DNA of 64,000 nucleotides, taken from assembly GCF_044324785.1 (NCBI RefSeq), contig NZ_CP172128.1, one strand, 5' to 3'. A program made the position numbers and the translations under genes. Numbering within the stretch: position 1 is the first letter of the stretch; each line of letters starts with the position of its first letter. Source of the stretch: Escherichia coli. Lineage in GTDB: Bacteria > Pseudomonadota > Gammaproteobacteria > Enterobacterales > Enterobacteriaceae. Positions 50,836 through 61,749 of the stretch are shown here, piece after piece. Below the pieces are notes generated by a model. That model was not told the DNA's origin. It saw only the letters and a list, made by a program, of their open reading frames with translations, and searched no databases.

Positions 50836-51403
50836 ACTTCGGCTCCCGGCTGCCTGGCGGCATCCGGTCGTCAGGCCCGACTACGACAGGCAGCTGCTTG
50901 CGCACCCGCCAGTCTCCGCCGAACCCGCTGGCGCGGTTTCGGGCTGTCGCTACGGTCCGATGCGTGAAAAACCGGGCTTGCAGCGACCGTTCCGGTCGCG
51001 CCGCCTCTGTCGCGCCGTGACCTGCGCTCCCTGCACACCTGACGGTGTGTGAGGAAACTGCGCCTGATGGCGCAGCAGTCTTCCCTCCTGCCGCCACCTC
51101 TGCGGCCTGTTTCCCGCTGTGGACTTTCCGGGGGGCAGACGTAACCCCCTCCCGTTCCATCTGTCCAGGGTGAGATGCACCGGCCACAAAATTTTTAGCC
51201 ATGAACCCGGCTAAAAATTTTGCGTCCGCCCCCGGACAGCTGTCCCGTGAGGCGGTAAACGGGCCCCCATCGGAAAGGTCCACTGCGGGGAGAAACCCCT
51301 GTGAAGTGGACGGCAGGAGGAGCTTTCGCTCCTCTGAAGGGGCACATGAACGTCCCGTCGCCGGTATCCGGTTTATCTCACATCTTTCAGTCAGGAGGTT
51401 CTT
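50836..51403 (+). repeat. GC-rich structured leading-region repeat, type A copy 1 (Frpo/ssi-like)
   Basis: homologous to 57192-57739 and 60527-60897; ends at ssb start. Confidence 0.6.
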
Positions 51404-56147: not shown

Positions 56148-56507
56148 AGGACGTCGCCGGCGGCTCCGCTTTTACCCGGCCATGCGGGGCATGGCCTTGT
56201 GGGTTTTCAGGTATGAAGCCATCGTGTCGTGTGCGGGCTGTGCCGTGCCTCCATCGTAGCCGGGCTTCTGCGGGCGGGATGCAAAGGTACGCTTCGCCGC
56301 TGCGGTCACCCGGTCCCTCCTTCCCGTCTGCCGTGATTTTCCGGTCGTTCACCCGCTCAGATTTCGCGGTCTCACCCTCCAACTCCCGTCAGCCGTGCGC
56401 GTCGGGCTGCGGCTTTCCTTGCGCCCTTGCATCCCTGCAGGCCCGGCAAGGATGGAGGCACGGCACCGCCCGGTGCCGCAGAACATGTGACTATGGAGGA
56501 TTCGGGA
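56148..56507 (+). repeat. GC-rich structured leading-region repeat, type B copy 2 (Frpo/ssi-like)
   Basis: nearly identical to 49195-49551; ends at ardA start. Confidence 0.6.
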
Positions 56508-57008
56508 ATGTCTGTTGTTGCACCTGCTGTATACGTTGGAACCTGGCACAAATACAACTGCGGAAGCATCGCCGGACGCTGGTTTGACCTGACCACGTTT
56601 GATGATGAACGCGATTTTTTCGCCGCCTGCCGTGCCCTTCACCAGGATGAAACCGATCCGGAACTGATGTTTCAGGATTATGAGGGATTCCCGGGGAATA
56701 TGGCCTCTGAATGTCATATCAACTGGGCCTGGGTTGAAGGCTTCCGCCGGGCGCGGGATGAAGGCTGCGAAGAGGCTTATCGTCTCTGGGTGGATGATAC
56801 CGGTGAGACGGATTTTGACACCTTCCGCGATGCCTGGTGGGGCGAGGCTGACAGTGAGGAGGCTTTTGCGGTTGAGTTCGCCAGTGATACCGGCCTGCTG
56901 GCTGGCGTGCCGGAGACGGTGGCGCTCTATTTTGACTATGAGGCGTATGCGCGGGATTTATTCCTGGACTCCTTCACCTTTATTGACGGTCATGTGTTCC
57001 GTCGGTGA
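56508..57008 (+). CDS. ardA: ArdA antirestriction protein (DNA mimic)
   Basis: 166 aa from MSVVAPAVYVGTWHKYNCGSIAGRWFDL.., highly acidic. Confidence 0.85.
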   Translation: MSVVAPAVYVGTWHKYNCGSIAGRWFDLTTFDDERDFFAACRALHQDETDPELMFQDYEGFPGNMASECHINWAWVEGFRRARDEGCEEAYRLWVDDTGETDFDTFRDAWWGEADSEEAFAVEFASDTGLLAGVPETVALYFDYEAYARDLFLDSFTFIDGHVFRR

Positions 57009-57191
57009 TTTACTCCCCCGCTCCGGCGGGGGTATGGCCTGCCGGGCCGCCGGAAAACCCTGGCAGGCTTACGCCTGCCTGAAATGCAGGAGGGCCGCGC
57101 CTGCGGCGCTGCCCTTCCTGCCCGTCATGGTGTGAGGCATTTTTCTGTTATGTCGTTTCTGTTGTTCTGATTTCCGGAGGCGGGGACACCC

Positions 57192-57739
57192 TTCGGCTCC
57201 CGGCTGCCTGGCGGCATCCGGTCGTCAGGCCCGACTCCGACAGGCAGCTGCTGGCGCACCCGCCAGTCTCCGCCGAACCCGCTGGCGCGGTTTCGGGCTG
57301 CCGCTACGGTCCGATGTCTGAAAAACCAGGCCTGCAGCGACCGTTCCGGTCGCGCCGCCCCTGTCGCGCCGGAAACGGCGCTCCCTGCACACCTGACGGT
57401 GTGTAAGGCCACTGCGCCTGATGGCGCAGTTGTCTGCCCTTCCGCCGCCACCCCTGCGGCCTGTTTCCCGCTGTGGACTTTCCGGGGGCTGAAGCGGCCA
57501 CAACACGTTTCAGCCGTCCAGGGGAGAGATGTACCAGCCACAAAACTTTTTGCCGCAGGCGTCAAAAACTTTTGCGTCTGCCCCCGGACAACTGCCCCGT
57601 GCCGTGGCAGTCGCTGCCCCATCGGAAAGGTCCACTGCGGGGAGAAACCCCGAAGAAGTGGACGGCAGAAGGGGCTTTCGCCCCTCCGGGGAATAACCGG
57701 TCGGCCCGGCGACCTGATTCAGCAGAAGGAGACTTTTTC
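57192..57739 (+). repeat. GC-rich structured leading-region repeat, type A copy 2 (Frpo/ssi-like)
   Basis: homologous to 50836-51403 and 60527-60897. Confidence 0.6.
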
Positions 57740-58174
57740 ATGACAGTCAGCAGCACGATTTCCGTTTTTTGCCGCGACGGGGTGTTCCGTACCGTTTACT
57801 GCCACCTGCACGGTGAGCCGGCCCGGAACGGTCGCATCCTGCATACCCACTATGCCACCGGTCAGCAGGCCGAAGCCCTAGTTGAACACGGTGATATCCG
57901 TTGCCTCGGTCCCCGTTGCGACAAACCCGCCGGGCATACGCTTCAGAACCCGGTGGACGGTGTGACGGCTTATTACGGACGTGACAGTGGTTTCCGGATG
58001 GACAGTGAAGCGCGTGAGTACCGCTCTTTCAGGGAGGCTATTGCCACTGAAAGCACAGAAGAGGTGCGCTTCCATTATGTGTTCATCGACGGCTACTGGA
58101 AGGTGATGTACCGCACGCCGGAAGGCTGGAAGATGAAAGCGCTCGCGCTGGCACTGCGTCGCTGTCCGGAATGA
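57740..58174 (+). CDS. hypothetical leading-region protein (144 aa)
   Basis: AAGGAG RBS 8 bp before ATG at 57740; Cys/His-containing; not recognised. Confidence 0.5.
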   Translation: MTVSSTISVFCRDGVFRTVYCHLHGEPARNGRILHTHYATGQQAEALVEHGDIRCLGPRCDKPAGHTLQNPVDGVTAYYGRDSGFRMDSEAREYRSFREAIATESTEEVRFHYVFIDGYWKVMYRTPEGWKMKALALALRRCPE

Positions 58175-58266
58175 AAAAAAGCAGGGCGATAACCCCTGCC
58201 TTTCTCCGCCGGCGCTTCCCCGTACGGAAGTCCGGCATCTCATTCACTAACTATGGAGATTATGCC

Positions 58267-58533
58267 ATGAGACCATCAATTATCTTCGCAACCGCCGAGT
58301 ATGTAAAGCGTCTGCGTGAAGAGTGCCGGCGGGAGAACAAACCCCTGCACCGCCATACCCGCTTCAGACGCCAGGAACTGGCACCGGATGAGATTAACCC
58401 GGACGTCCTGGCGATGGGCGGTCATATCGCCAGACGCTGCAGTGAGCGGAAGCGGGTGCGTATCCCCGCCATGAAAGTCAGCGAATGGGGCCACCTGCTC
58501 CGCGCGCTTGAAATTGAACGGGTCTGCCACTGA
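58267..58533 (+). CDS. hypothetical small basic protein
   Basis: 88-aa ORF; weak support. Confidence 0.3.
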   Translation: MRPSIIFATAEYVKRLREECRRENKPLHRHTRFRRQELAPDEINPDVLAMGGHIARRCSERKRVRIPAMKVSEWGHLLRALEIERVCH

Positions 58534-58597
58534 TTACCCCTTGCCGTCTGCCTGTGCAGGCGGCAGGATACGTTCAGACATCTCACCAGGAGGAACC

Positions 58598-59560
58598 GTG
58601 AGTAAGAAGAAAAACACCACAACGCCCACGCCGCATGATGCTGCGTTCCGGTCGTTCCTGGCGAATCCCGACGTCGCCAGAGATTTTCTGGAACTGCATC
58701 TTCCGGCGGAGTACCGGCAGTTGTGCGACCTGTCCACGCTGAAGCTGGAACCCGCCACCTTTGTTGAGCCGGACCTGCATCAGTACGCCAGCGATATCCT
58801 CTGGAGTGTGAAAACCACCGGGGGTGAAGACGGCTATGTTTATACGCTCATCGAGCACCAGAGCACCGAAAATCTGTACATGCCTTTCCGCATGATACGT
58901 TACAGTGTGGCGGCGATGCAGAGACATCTGGAGCAGCACAAAACATTGCCACTGGTGATTCCGGTGCTGTTCTATCATGGTGAGCGCAGCCCGTACCCGT
59001 ACAGCATGAACTGGCTGGACTGTTTTGAGGATCCGGCGCTTGCGGCTAAAATATACACAAAGCCGTTTCCGCTGGTTGATATCACTGTCGTTGATGACAA
59101 TGAAATCATGAACCATCGCCGGATGGCCGCACTGACGCTGCTGATGAAGCATATCCGCCATCGTGACATGATGGAGCTGCTGGACAAACTCCCGCAGGTC
59201 ATGGTGGAAATTTCAGACGAGCAGGTGCGTGTTCTGATTCATTACATCGTTAACGCAGGGGACTCTGTATCACCGGAATTTATGCGGGCGCTGGCTGAGC
59301 GTCTGCCGCAGCATGAGGATAAACTGATGACTATTGCCGAACGTCTTGAGCAGCAAGGAATACAGAAAGGAATACAGCAGGGAATACAGCAGGGAATACA
59401 GCAGGGAATACAGCAGGGAATACAGCAGGGAATACAGAAAGGCCGCATGGAGGAGAAGCAGGATATTGCGCGTCAGCTTCAGAAAACGGGAATGCCATCT
59501 GCACAAATCTGTCAGATCACCGGACTTTCCGAAGCTGAACTGAAGAACATCACTCACTGA
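58598..59560 (+). CDS. Rpn-family (YhgA-like) recombination-promoting nuclease / putative transposase
   Basis: GTG start after AGGAGG RBS; N-terminus ..TPHDAAFRSFLANPDVARDFLELHLP.. and ..YTLIEHQS.. typical of Rpn/YhgA PD-(D/E)XK proteins; C-terminal (GIQQ)x7 repeat. Confidence 0.7.
   Translation: MSKKKNTTTPTPHDAAFRSFLANPDVARDFLELHLPAEYRQLCDLSTLKLEPATFVEPDLHQYASDILWSVKTTGGEDGYVYTLIEHQSTENLYMPFRMIRYSVAAMQRHLEQHKTLPLVIPVLFYHGERSPYPYSMNWLDCFEDPALAAKIYTKPFPLVDITVVDDNEIMNHRRMAALTLLMKHIRHRDMMELLDKLPQVMVEISDEQVRVLIHYIVNAGDSVSPEFMRALAERLPQHEDKLMTIAERLEQQGIQKGIQQGIQQGIQQGIQQGIQQGIQKGRMEEKQDIARQLQKTGMPSAQICQITGLSEAELKNITH
59357..59440 (+). repeat. in-frame 12-bp tandem repeat x7 (GGAATACAGCAG) encoding (GIQQ)n inside rpn-like gene
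   Basis: perfect tandem copies visible directly. Confidence 0.85.
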
Positions 59561-59571
59561 TGAGAACCACA

Positions 59572-59598
59572 AAGCCCGGCAAAATGCCGGGTTTTTTT
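59572..59598 (+). terminator. rho-independent terminator-like hairpin
   Basis: AAAGCCCGGCAAAATGCCGGGTTTTTTTG. Confidence 0.6.
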
Positions 59599-59622
59599 GT
59601 CAGCAGGAGCAGAGCAAACAGC

Positions 59623-59784
59623 ATGACGATTGCAGAACGTCTTGAGCAAAAAGGTCGCCAGGAAGGAGCGCTTGAAAAAGCCCTGGCCATTGCGTGCCAG
59701 CTTCAGAAAATGGGGATGACGCCGGAGCAGATTAAGCAGGCTACCGGACTGTCCGAAGCTGAACTGAAAAAAATCATTCACTGA
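59623..59784 (+). CDS. stand-alone Rpn C-terminal-domain paralog (53 aa)
   Basis: MTIAERLEQKG..GLSEAELKKIIH parallels the C-terminus of the upstream Rpn-like protein. Confidence 0.45.
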   Translation: MTIAERLEQKGRQEGALEKALAIACQLQKMGMTPEQIKQATGLSEAELKKIIH

Positions 59785-59794
59785 TGAGAGCATC

Positions 59795-59822
59795 ACAGCC
59801 CGGCAGAATGCCGGGCTTTTTT
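59795..59822 (+). terminator. rho-independent terminator-like hairpin
   Basis: CAGCCCGGCAGAATGCCGGGCTTTTTTG. Confidence 0.6.
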
Positions 59823-59842
59823 GCCAGCAGGGGCAGAGCAGT

Positions 59843-60037
59843 ATGACTATTGCAGAACGTCTTATACAGAAAGGTTTCGACGAGGGTTTTAAACAAGGTT
59901 TTAAACAAGGGGCTCTTGAAGTGGCGCGGGAAATAGCCTGCCGGCTGCGGGATATAGGCTGGCCGCCGGAACGGATTCAGGAGGTCACGGGACTTTCCGG
60001 TGAAGAACTGAAAAAGCTGTTTCCTGATGAGCAGTAG
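59843..60037 (+). CDS. stand-alone Rpn C-terminal-domain paralog (64 aa)
   Basis: MTIAERLIQKG..GLSGEELKKLF parallels the same domain. Confidence 0.45.
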   Translation: MTIAERLIQKGFDEGFKQGFKQGALEVAREIACRLRDIGWPPERIQEVTGLSGEELKKLFPDEQ

Positions 60038-60068
60038 CCTGGCATTCAGCCAGGCTGTGAATCACCGC

Positions 60069-60320
60069 TCACACATCCTCTGCCGTTTCCCCCAGTTCAT
60101 TTTCCAGTCGCCTGATGATATCTGCCTTACGCATCCCCTGCATGTGAGGCAGCAGGTCACGGACTGAAAGAGCCTGGGTGGTCCTCCAGACGGTGACGTC
60201 CACCTGTTCCGCATTTTCCCAGGCGTGCCATGTTCTCTGCGTCACGCCAAATTCTCTGGCCGCTTTTTCGCGTGACCAGAGCATGCTTTTTCGCCAGATT
60301 CGCAGTTCCCAGCCGGTCAT
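60069..60320 (-). CDS. small HTH-type DNA-binding protein, putative
   Basis: 83-aa ORF; inverted repeat AAAGTGAAAAAACTTCACTTT just upstream of its start. Confidence 0.4.
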   Translation of the reverse strand: MTGWELRIWRKSMLWSREKAAREFGVTQRTWHAWENAEQVDVTVWRTTQALSVRDLLPHMQGMRKADIIRRLENELGETAEDV

Positions 60321-60526
60321 AAAACACCTTTGAAAAAGTGAAAAAACTTCACTTTATTTTATCATCATAATCATCAAATCAGCGCGATAAATAAGTGTAA
60401 AAAAATGAAGAAATTTCACTTTTTTTTGCTTGTAAATGTCGTGCGGTTTTCTCTGTTTTCACCTGTGCGGGAGTGGTGTGCCAGTGACCACCACATGCCA
60501 TTGTTGTGCCGTCGTTTTTCTTCAGT

Positions 60527-60897
60527 CGCGCCGTATGCGGCGCTCCCTGCACACCTTACGGTGTGTAAGGCCACTGCGCCTGATGGCGCAGCTGTCTCTG
60601 CCTGTCTGCCGCCGCACTGCGGCCTGTTCTCCGCAGACGGACTTTCCGGGGGTACATACATGACCACATCCCGTTTCAGTCGTCCAGGGGAGAGATGTAC
60701 CAGCCACAAAACTTTTTGCCGCAGGCGTCAAAAACTTTTGCGTCTGCCCCCGGACAACTGCCCCGTGACGTGGTGAGCGTCCCCCGTCGGAAAGGTCCAC
60801 TGCGGGGAAATCCCCGAAGACCCGGACGGCAGAAGGAGCTTCGCTCCTCCGGGAAATGACCTGGCTGACCCGGCAGTCGTGACGATGAGGAGACAAT
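60527..60897 (+). repeat. GC-rich structured leading-region repeat, type A copy 3 (Frpo/ssi-like)
   Basis: homologous to the 3' ~370 bp of the other type A copies. Confidence 0.6.
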
Positions 60898-60900
60898 GTG

Positions 60901-61749
60901 ATGAATCAGACTTTACCCACTGCTGACCTGAATACTGCCGGCACGACAGATGTTATTCCGTCTGTGGCTATCGACCGCATCATCGCGCAGCGTAACGAAG
61001 GTATTGCACTGTTCATGCAGGCGATGGAATGCCTGGCGACAGCGCGCAAGATTCTGCTCGATGCGTCAGGTGATATTTTTCTTTACGGGTTTGAAGACTG
61101 CGTGACTGATTCCGTTCGTCGCATAGATAAACCGGAAGAAGCGAAAAGGAATATCACCCGTCTTGCCGACCGGAAAATCTGGGAGCGCCTGATGACAGAT
61201 ACGGGCATGTACACCTTCATGAGTTCATGCCAGCGTGATGAGTGGAACAGCCAGCTGATGAGCGACACCTGTCCTGAAATCACCCTGGACAATGTACTGG
61301 CAACATTCCGCCATCTGAATGCCTGCAAGATGCAGACATTTGAACAGGGACTGATTGATGTCTACCGGAAATTGTCATGGGATTACAGAACCAATAATCC
61401 CTGCCGTCTGGGTAAGAAAATCATTATTGAAAACCTGCTGTACCGCTGGAGTAACGGGCGTGTGACGCTGGACTGCAGCGGACGGGAGGCACTGGATGAC
61501 CTGGTACGTCCGTTTTATCTGCTGGAGGGGCGCAACGTTCCTGACTTCAGGAACAGCATCGGGGCGCAGTATGGTGAATTTCTCGGGAACGGCGACAATG
61601 TCGGTAAGCTGTTAGAAGGGGAATATTTTACGGTGCGTGGCTACCAGAAAGGGACCGTACACATTGTCTTTAATCGTTCTGACCTTGTTGAAAAACTGAA
61701 TGATATTATTGCACGGCATTATCCAGGTGTATTGCCGCCACGAGTCTGA
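60901..61749 (+). CDS. hypothetical leading-region protein (282 aa)
   Basis: GAGGAG RBS; long ORF ending at a strong terminator; not recognised. Confidence 0.5.
   Translation: MNQTLPTADLNTAGTTDVIPSVAIDRIIAQRNEGIALFMQAMECLATARKILLDASGDIFLYGFEDCVTDSVRRIDKPEEAKRNITRLADRKIWERLMTDTGMYTFMSSCQRDEWNSQLMSDTCPEITLDNVLATFRHLNACKMQTFEQGLIDVYRKLSWDYRTNNPCRLGKKIIIENLLYRWSNGRVTLDCSGREALDDLVRPFYLLEGRNVPDFRNSIGAQYGEFLGNGDNVGKLLEGEYFTVRGYQKGTVHIVFNRSDLVEKLNDIIARHYPGVLPPRV

Follow-up and report, generated by a model that had tools for sequence, protein, structure and literature searches.

The 64,000-nucleotide stretch of Escherichia coli DNA analysed here (contig NZ_CP172128.1; hereafter called the window) has a sequence identical to that of pLH10-b-1-A (NZ_CP100531.1), a conjugative IncK2/Z plasmid of E. 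coli that belongs to the I-complex. At positions 58598–60037 it carries a gene for an Rpn-family nuclease followed by two small genes that resemble the C-terminal end of the nuclease. We consider it probable (roughly 0.78) that this locus is a plasmid-borne RpnL/RpnS toxin-antitoxin system, an antiphage nuclease of the kind described by Zhong et al. in 2023, which is accompanied by two extra RpnSs genes and resides in the leading region of an IncK2/Z plasmid. Every sequence-level feature expected of an RpnL/RpnS system with RpnSs genes is found at this location.

In the published system, Rpn proteins form toxin-antitoxin pairs in which the full-length protein, RpnL, is a toxic antiphage DNA endonuclease (PMC10400941; commentary PMC10400984). 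The antitoxin, RpnS, is translated from a start codon inside the gene; it has the same sequence as the RpnL tail and blocks RpnL by direct binding; for RpnA, M244 is the proven internal start (PMC10400941). Repeats of four amino acids begin 8–20 residues past the internal methionine and vary in number between strains, and one added unit abolishes inhibition unless it is present in both partners (PMC10400941). In addition, RpnS may come from a gene of its own located downstream (ypaA/rpnESs, rpnCSs) and liable to deletion or to fusion with the nuclease; the plasmid system RpnP2 protects against T-even phages (PMC10400941). The corresponding features of the locus studied here, numbered by position in the window, are as follows.

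58598–59560, + strand: rpnL, an Rpn (YhgA-like) PD-(D/E)XK nuclease gene, predicted toxin, with an A-type C-terminal tail (PF04754, TIGR01784, RpnA alignment)
59025–59052, + strand: TTGAGG-16-TAAAAT, candidate sigma-70 promoter within rpnL, a possible source of a short rpnS transcript (consensus scan, 9/12 matches)
59315–59319 (ribosome-binding site GAGGA), ATG at 59327, end at 59560, + strand: rpnS, predicted 77-amino-acid antitoxin equal to the RpnL tail (aligned to RpnA M244)
59351–59437, + strand: 12-bp tandem repeat of 7.2 copies in helix 1 of RpnL/RpnS, hypervariable specificity segment (Tandem Repeats Finder, TRF)
59575–59598 (hairpin to 59591), + strand: terminator-like hairpin 1, CCCGGCA-AAA-TGCCGGG followed by T7 (-17.2 kcal/mol, z = -3.8)
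59623–59784, + strand: S1, stand-alone RpnSs gene, B type, 53 amino acids, one GRQE unit (tblastn, TIGR01784)
59797–59823 (hairpin to 59817), + strand: terminator-like hairpin 2, AGCCCGGCA-GAA-TGCCGGGCT followed by T6 (-20.8 kcal/mol, z = -4.2)
59843–60037, + strand: S2, stand-alone RpnSs gene, C type, 64 amino acids, units GFDE-GFKQ-GFKQ (tblastn, TIGR01784, AlphaFold)
60036–60056, + strand: third homologous hairpin, without a T-run, between S2 and a convergent helix-turn-helix (HTH) gene (-17.5 kcal/mol, z = -2.9)

The nuclease gene and its predicted internal antitoxin start

The open reading frame (ORF) at 58598–59560 begins with GTG and encodes a product of 320 amino acids. An earlier note on this DNA had recognized it as Rpn/YhgA-like, and database searches agree with that identification. 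The protein matches Pfam Transposase_31 (PF04754; E = 3e-78, residues 11–207) and NCBIfam TIGR01784, 'Rpn family recombination-promoting nuclease' (191.4 bits, cut-off 52.1), and it shares 49% identity with E. coli K-12 RpnA from end to end. BLASTP aligns residues D14, D66, E86 and Q88 of RpnL with D11, D63, E82 and Q84 of RpnA, and R98 with R94. Kingston et al. 2017 found all three in-vivo phenotypes abolished by changes at RpnA D11, D63, E82 and Q84, the last to K (PMC5350276). RpnL is thus a homologue of a toxic DNA endonuclease, and the first step of the proposed mechanism would be its action as a toxic PD-(D/E)XK DNA endonuclease, as judged from this homology. At residues 165–170 (~59090–59107) RpnL carries DDNEI, where all E. 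coli K-12 Rpn proteins reportedly have PDDEI; the position matching RpnA D165 is occupied by N, and the RpnA variant D165A is hyperactive. PADLOC, which contains no Rpn model, returned for the RpnL tail only a weak match to a 'putative invertase' HTH model.

An internal ATG at 59327, located 7 nt after an in-frame GAGGA, marks the start of the variable tail of RpnL. Its methionine aligns with RpnA M244 and corresponds to the same MTIAERL methionine that begins crystallised RpnA-S (7TH0), whose N-terminus reads MTIAERLRQEG; the A tail matches 7TH0 by sequence (E = 0.001). The arrangement GAGGA-N7-ATG is retained both in the A/B gene lineage and in the divergent A2 lineage described below. Internal transcription start sites have been reported for all E. 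coli rpn genes (PMC10400941), and the candidate sigma-70 promoter at 59025–59052 lies upstream of this start. From positional equivalence with RpnA M244 and 7TH0, the internal start should yield the cognate antitoxin, a three-helix, tail-identical RpnS that would bind and block RpnL. The earlier note did not mention this start, the third hairpin or the 12-bp repeat of S2. The internal start is the central omission; the whole arrangement had been described in 2023 (PMC10400941).

Within the tail, TRF reports a repeat at 59351–59437 with a period of 12, 7.2 copies and 96% matches. The earlier note had described it as a perfect sevenfold GIQQ repeat. Its 12-bp in-frame periodicity holds, but the translation is GIQK-(GIQQ)5-GIQK, with five perfect units and a variant unit at each end. 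The repeat starts at residue 11 of RpnS, which falls within the 8–20 residue range given by Zhong et al. (PMC10400941). The repeat would extend helix 1 of RpnL and RpnS together, and slippage could then isolate the pair from other Rpn alleles; in this step the variation in unit number is observed and the specificity rule is that of the published work.

Stand-alone genes and the exchange of tails between plasmids

Both S1 and S2 begin with MTIAERL and finish with GLSxxELKK, and both are homologous to the last ~50–77 residues of RpnL. The likeness to the Rpn C-terminus proposed in the earlier note, together with the boundaries and shared ends of the two ORFs, is upheld by a tblastn search of the Rpn tail against the 64-kb window, in which S1 and S2 are the sole further matches (E ~1e-10). 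The two proteins match TIGR01784 positions 221–273, with S1 covering the last 50 positions at E = 7e-9, and their identity to the adjacent RpnL tail is 66% for S1 and 44% for S2. TRF detects in S2 a 12-bp repeat of its own (2.2 copies encoding GFKQ, 59885–59910). The AlphaFold model of S2 (predicted local distance difference test score, pLDDT, of 85) consists of one long and two short helices (3–37, 42–49 and 53–59), and its best match in the PDB is E. coli RpnA-S, 7TH0 (probability 0.98, template modelling score of 0.73 on the target); the RpnA-S-like fold was checked on S2. Precomputed Pfam data assign PF27070 (HTH_Rpn_C) to these small proteins, and newer annotation sources label the ORFs 'RpnC/YadD family protein' with the Pfam domain HTH_Rpn_C. 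Our Pfam-A profile search of S1 and S2 reported neither PF27070 nor DUF4351.

DNA alignment resolves the locus into three tandem homologous modules, each of which runs from an ATG through a stop codon to a hairpin. The terminator hairpins that the earlier note placed before each small ORF are present at 59575–59591, followed by T7, and at 59797–59817, followed by T6, and in the relatives hairpin 1 follows each module of type A, A2 or B. No Rfam family reached the gathering score in a scan of 56500–61500. Shine-Dalgarno-like elements of S1 and S2 (AGGAG and AGGGG) are distant, at 13 and 9 nt from the ATG. Because each gene follows a hairpin and T-run, expression of S1 and S2 must depend on read-through.

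In GenBank, S1 is a 74-amino-acid protein that starts at an ATG at 59560 overlapping the rpn stop codon (TGATGA) and reads through the terminator hairpin, and the same N-terminal extension of 21 amino acids is present on many C-type records. This longer form is probably an annotation artefact; the frame of the extension is unconserved, and the spacer is 4 nt shorter at S2 of the window and at related loci L017 and L027.

The query region, whole or in part, matches 2040 PLSDB plasmids, most of them conjugative, from Escherichia, Salmonella and Shigella. We compared 82 fetched related loci (L001–L082), in which four types of tail occur. The A tail has GIQQ units and the core RMEEKQDIARQLQKTGMP, and the A2 tail is related to it, on a gene that is ~85% identical at the DNA level. 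The B tail has GRQE/GRME units and the core ALEKALAIACQLQKMGM, and the C tail has GFDE/GFKQ units, the core ALEVAREIACRLRDIGW and a frame-shifted end, LFPDEQ. Writing a fused tail after 'nuc', separating successive modules by colons and giving unit numbers in parentheses, the usual plasmid state comprises two modules, nuc-A:C, nuc-A2:C or nuc-B:C; three are present in the window, as nuc-A(7):B(1):C(3). Both repeat number and module number vary across the relatives, where states of one, two and three modules are all found.

Nuclease bodies that carry A, B or C tails are 98–100% identical, and the tails themselves are only ~44–66% identical. Near-identical bodies with such divergent tails indicate that tails were replaced while the body stayed the same. 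In NZ_CP134369.1 (locus L013), the fused tail of the nuc-B(1) RpnL, and with it the predicted RpnS, matches S1 at 100% identity. At least 1000 contigs carry that RpnL, and a protein identical to S1 occurs on 718 contigs of a larger collection. The C type is stand-alone throughout the best 120 protein clusters, and almost all loci have a stand-alone C downstream of the nuclease; C-type module DNA is present in 1340 of 5426 complete E. coli genomes, with 1553 of its 1569 places on plasmids. A chimeric DNA probe nevertheless revealed single-piece nuc-C junctions, such as that of R621a, where C(3) forms the tail of the nuclease and no further module follows. We found no full-length Rpn protein with a close C-type tail outside this plasmid family among 1.84 billion representatives, a set in which clustering at 50% identity could hide such a protein. 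S1 and S2 are most likely heterologous RpnS paralogues; the same modules serve as fused nuclease tails in other plasmids.

The sequence of S1 itself suggests how such an array can arise. Its first 9 nt are of C type (ATGACGATT) and are followed by B-specific sequence. The opening sequence is ATGACGATTGCAGAACGTCTT in the stand-alone B module of the window and ATGACTATCGCAGAACGTCTT in fused B; stand-alone C usually starts with the ACG ATT version. A C-type start with a B-specific continuation indicates a recombination breakpoint, which lies inside the 12-nt GCAGAACGTCTT stretch of the box encoding MTIAERL. Moreover, the spacer upstream of S1 is the one that precedes C in many two-module plasmids, and the spacer between S1 and S2 (B to C) is identical to that of the nuc-B:C plasmid L017. 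The simplest history to account for these sequences would be an unequal crossover in GCAGAACGTCTT between the C module of a nuc-A:C allele and the fused B of a nuc-B:C allele, for which the reciprocal or deletion product would be a nuc-C fusion of the R621a kind. We propose that the array is built and rebuilt by unequal homologous recombination of this type between alleles, with crossovers in the 5' box ATGAC.AT.GC.GAACGTCTT, which encodes MTIAERL, and in the conserved 3' end and hairpin; the mosaic junctions are observed directly. Such tail exchange agrees with the report that rpnSs genes can be lost by deletion or fusion (Zhong et al., PMC10400941).

Three-module arrays are uncommon. The A-to-B junction is matched at ≥95% identity in 28 of ~1960 matching PLSDB plasmids. 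Arrays of three modules also occur on the A2 lineage (L027 and L076), where the A2-to-B spacer is different, and such arrays have arisen, or have been moved by recombination, more than once.

Unit numbers range over the 82 loci from 3 to 7 for A, 2 to 5 for A2, 0 to 7 for B and 0 to 6 for C. All values from 3 to 7 (3, 4, 5, 6 and 7) are observed for A on otherwise identical backgrounds, as anticipated by the earlier note when it called the repeat a mutable site for strand slippage. Loci L053 and L055 carry three-module arrays that are identical except for one A unit, the expected product of slippage or of unequal exchange among the repeat units. Nuclease tail and stand-alone C agree in unit number in only 2 of 29 unique combinations, where permutation gives an expectation of 4.3. 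In nuc-B:C loci the two numbers are never equal and are negatively correlated (rho = -0.70, p = 0.0016, n = 17 unique combinations) in a small sample that was chosen through C variants and comprises two sequence lineages. The possibility that this correlation represents functional coupling was set aside; given the two lineages and the sampling through C variants, it probably represents population structure.

The earlier note also offered decay after tandem duplication as a source of the small ORFs. This proposal is not supported by the relatives, in which the stand-alone C ORF is intact in 16 of the 17 first-fetched plasmid loci, the exception being L005 with an IS66 insertion. In the non-repeat core, C has a ratio of nonsynonymous to synonymous substitution (dN/dS) of ~0.33 and B one of 0.10. 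Purifying selection acts on the stand-alone copies, and they are not decaying. In L005 (NZ_CP104082.1, ~2832–2912), the IS66-family element ISCro1 has entered the C-type gene of a three-module array 9 codons from its start, and the gene is truncated. Another unusual locus, L043 (GCA_001012335.1, LDDI01000003.1; locus 900–1731), has an rpn gene without its 5' part including the catalytic core, with a frame that begins KTLPLVIPVLFYHG. What survives whole is the internal RpnS (B, 0 units) together with the stand-alone C (6 units), which makes the locus an antitoxin-only remnant; the genes upstream encode DinI and DUF1281.

Leading-region setting and possible roles of the stand-alone genes

The rpn locus is situated in the plasmid leading region, where the gene order is ssb, ParB-like, psiB, psiA, ardA, two small ORFs, rpn, S1, S2, the convergent HTH gene, DUF4942 and nikA/relaxase. 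The neighbouring features are these.

57191–57686, - strand: predicted Frpo/ssi-type single-strand DNA promoter repeat (homology to F, folding)
57740–58174, + strand: ygcA-like ORF, 144 amino acids (annotated in NZ_CP100531.1; named in LC567094)
58267–58533, + strand: ygdA-like ORF (annotated in NZ_CP100531.1; named in LC567094)
60069–60320, - strand: convergent HTH gene, 83 amino acids, ygeA in LC567094 (annotated in nearly all fetched loci)

The ygcA-like and ygdA-like ORFs are kept upstream of rpn in the fetched plasmid loci with sufficient flank, and neither has a match in NCBIfam or PADLOC. Records disagree on the first of them (57740–58174): some call it 'post-segregation killing protein PndC', others 'hypothetical', and the PndC name looks unreliable. 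The 83-amino-acid HTH gene (60069–60320) gives a weak PADLOC match to mad1 (E = 0.003).

Three long repeats in the window (50837–51334, 57191–57686 and 60525–60773) are 74–94% identical, by blastn, to two sites of plasmid F, one just upstream of ssb and one just upstream of the ORF at F 64032. These F positions are the described sites of Frpo2 and Frpo1 (PMC9849209). Each Frpo-type repeat of the window precedes a run of + strand leading-region genes, and the copy at 57191–57686 lies directly upstream of the string ygcA-ygdA-rpn-S1-S2, which is co-oriented with ssb, psiB and ardA. Folded as - strand single-stranded DNA, this copy gives -167.5 kcal/mol (z = -9.8). By homology with the F sites, its structure would form in the transferred (-) strand, and the + strand genes downstream would be transcribed from it. 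Its location upstream of the co-oriented rpn string makes early rpn transcription from the Frpo-type element after transfer plausible. The main text of the pESBL transcriptome paper does not name rpn, and the literature searched contains no mention of a leading-region or Frpo-type setting for Rpn.

Several points weigh against our interpretation of the locus as an active RpnL/RpnS system with functional RpnSs genes. Expression and activity of RpnL and RpnS from this plasmid are predictions from sequence. The repeat-number rule was demonstrated for RpnC and one added unit, with tail types other than A, B or C (PMC10400941), and the plasmid system tested in that work, RpnP2 of ECOR13, may belong to a lineage other than this leading-region one. 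S1 and S2 each lie directly behind a strong terminator-like hairpin with a distant AGGAG or AGGGG element, and their expression could be low. Finally, the dN/dS values derive from few, recombining sequences, and most of the B sequences are fused, not stand-alone.

The units of S1 and S2 differ from those of the adjacent RpnL tail both in sequence and in number (1 and 3 versus 7), which makes B- or C-tailed RpnL alleles likelier binding partners than the neighbouring nuclease. Three explanations for their presence compatible with the RpnL/RpnS assignment can be considered.

It is possible, though not likely, that the extra modules, or at least S1, are neutral by-products of unequal crossing-over that remain until a deletion removes them and at most supply material for tail replacement. 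The rarity of the A-to-B junction among PLSDB plasmids, the frequent recombination evident from mosaic junctions and the coexistence of one-, two- and three-module states are all consistent with this proposal. However, the presence of the exact S1 protein on so many contigs indicates that the allele has spread, and three-module arrays are found on two nuclease lineages. The C gene is intact nearly everywhere, and the low dN/dS of B also argues for retention, though the B sequences sampled are mostly fused. The notion of a neutral reservoir of tails is credible for S1 and less so for the near-universal C.

Alternatively, S1 and S2 could be extra antitoxin copies for the adjacent nuclease, like RpnESs/YpaA, that raise or decouple antitoxin dosage despite the repeat mismatch. 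This role has been suggested for downstream RpnSs genes (PMC10400941, PMC10400984), and the position of C after the nuclease in nearly every locus, under purifying selection, fits well with it. We find it doubtful for this locus, however. A mismatch of a single unit abolishes inhibition in the published experiments, and the modules here differ far more extensively (GIQQ versus GRQE versus GFKQ, with 7, 1 and 3 units). Under the published rule S1 and S2 should not inhibit the adjacent A(7) nuclease, which makes a dosage role less likely. Unit numbers of tail and C do not track each other, and S1 and S2 do not cluster with their own upstream RpnS as the published copies do, a property that is not a defining criterion of RpnSs.

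A third explanation is that S1 and S2 are orphan antitoxins that act in conflicts between genetic elements. Expressed early from the single-strand promoter, they would neutralise B- or C-tailed RpnL proteins of resident plasmids or of the host, and the addition of S1 to an A:C array would widen the range of Rpn immunity of the incoming plasmid. S1 has exactly the sequence of the RpnS that a very common rival allele encodes, and the unit number of S2 (3) is that of the nuc-C tail of R621a. Tail and C unit numbers are equal less often than expected, such that C is rarely matched to its neighbour under the published rule. Furthermore, the locus lies downstream of a Frpo homologue on the strand shared with ssb, psiB and ardA, and the L043 remnant retains its RpnS and C genes despite the deleted nuclease core. 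Orphan antitoxins are enriched in leading regions and have been proposed to act against toxin-antitoxin defences (PMC11541004). Despite these parallels, two terminator-like hairpins separate the promoter from S1 and S2, an attack of RpnL on incoming plasmids is a supposition, and no close full-length C partner was found outside the plasmid family, where clustering at 50% identity could hide one. In addition, the identity of S1 to the tail of another allele would follow automatically from a recent recombination origin. We therefore judge this explanation unlikely. The broader concept that leading-region RpnS genes constitute an 'immunity repertoire', in which zygotic Frpo-driven antitoxins counter the matching-tail Rpn nucleases of competitors or host, is equally speculative and improbable. 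If it were true, modules would be added or swapped by recombination and retuned by repeat slippage in an arms race between plasmids.

Two functional suggestions of the earlier note can be placed against these results. One, a dissociated partner or inhibitor of the nuclease, corresponds to the antitoxin concept published for RpnS/RpnSs (PMC10400941). The other, cassette shuffling, is apt at the level of populations, where B and C modules occur both stand-alone and fused on bodies that are 98–100% identical, but no programmed device was found.

The I-complex plasmid group carries the Rci shufflon elsewhere. An integron- or shufflon-like cassette system, in which a site-specific recombinase switches the nuclease tail within a clone, is hardly credible at this locus: the resemblance, namely repeated hairpin-ended modules on an I-complex plasmid, is an outward one only, and the hairpins are 7–9 bp GC stems with T-runs like those of intrinsic terminators, the modules all share one orientation such that inversion cannot fuse them to the nuclease, and the junctions fall within extended homology with no fixed short core. 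In a scan of the window that allowed up to 2 mismatches, no copy of the sfx shufflon core appeared, and the annotation contains no recombinase gene adjoining the array. The terminator-like hairpins and these two negative results led us to reject an integron cassette array or an Rci shufflon. The exchange of modules is ordinary homologous recombination between alleles, not programmed shuffling.

Comparison with known systems

The intragenic antitoxin, the code of four-amino-acid repeats and the downstream RpnSs copies have been known since 2023, and this locus opens no new class. Its value lies in the natural data set that it represents, in which a single nuclease body has three or more interchangeable tails and is followed by between zero and two stand-alone genes of antitoxin type. 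Tail-replacement recombination can be read from these loci at the nucleotide level, and the C-type module is present in about a quarter of complete E. coli genomes. The loci also supply concrete pairs for the repeat-number rule, for example S1 and the nuc-B(1) RpnL of NZ_CP134369.1. The placement in the leading region behind a single-strand promoter raises the question of whether Rpn and RpnSs proteins act during plasmid establishment.

Like the E. coli RpnL/RpnS systems (RpnA–E and RpnP2; PMC10400941), the locus combines a PD-(D/E)XK nuclease, a three-helix tail and an MTIAERL internal start with four-amino-acid (12-bp) repeats that begin ~10 residues past the methionine and vary in number between strains. 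A plasmid location has also been noted for some rpn genes. Unlike those systems, it resides in an I-complex leading region behind a Frpo-type promoter. Its seven units are at the high end for the lineage, and it carries DDNEI where RpnA has PDDEI.

S1 and S2 share with the published RpnSs genes (ypaA/rpnESs, rpnCSs) their position as stand-alone RpnS-type genes directly downstream of rpn, their variable four-amino-acid repeats, and their gain, loss by deletion or fusion by recombination to the N-terminal region of the nuclease. The published RpnSs genes occur as one downstream copy that groups with the RpnS upstream of it, as a local duplicate would. In contrast, the present locus has two copies of two heterologous types, neither of which is closest to the adjacent tail. 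The B copy is the exact tail of another common allele, and C is almost always stand-alone and rarely fused.

Two further comparisons concern the possible roles of the modules. As with the leading-region orphan antitoxins of Samuel et al. 2024 (PMC11541004), toxin-unmatched antitoxin genes are located here near ssb, psiB and ardA and are co-oriented with single-strand promoters. However, Rpn, YhgA and Transposase_31 are unmentioned in that study (PMC11541004), and an anti-defence role of RpnSs is a hypothesis. Zhong et al. compared the Rpn repeat with the TAEL repeat of EcoR124I/EcoR124II HsdS, in which a change in the count of four-amino-acid units in a helical spacer likewise alters specificity (PMC10400941). 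The HsdS repeat sets the spacing of the DNA target, whereas the Rpn repeat sets the pairing of toxin and antitoxin.

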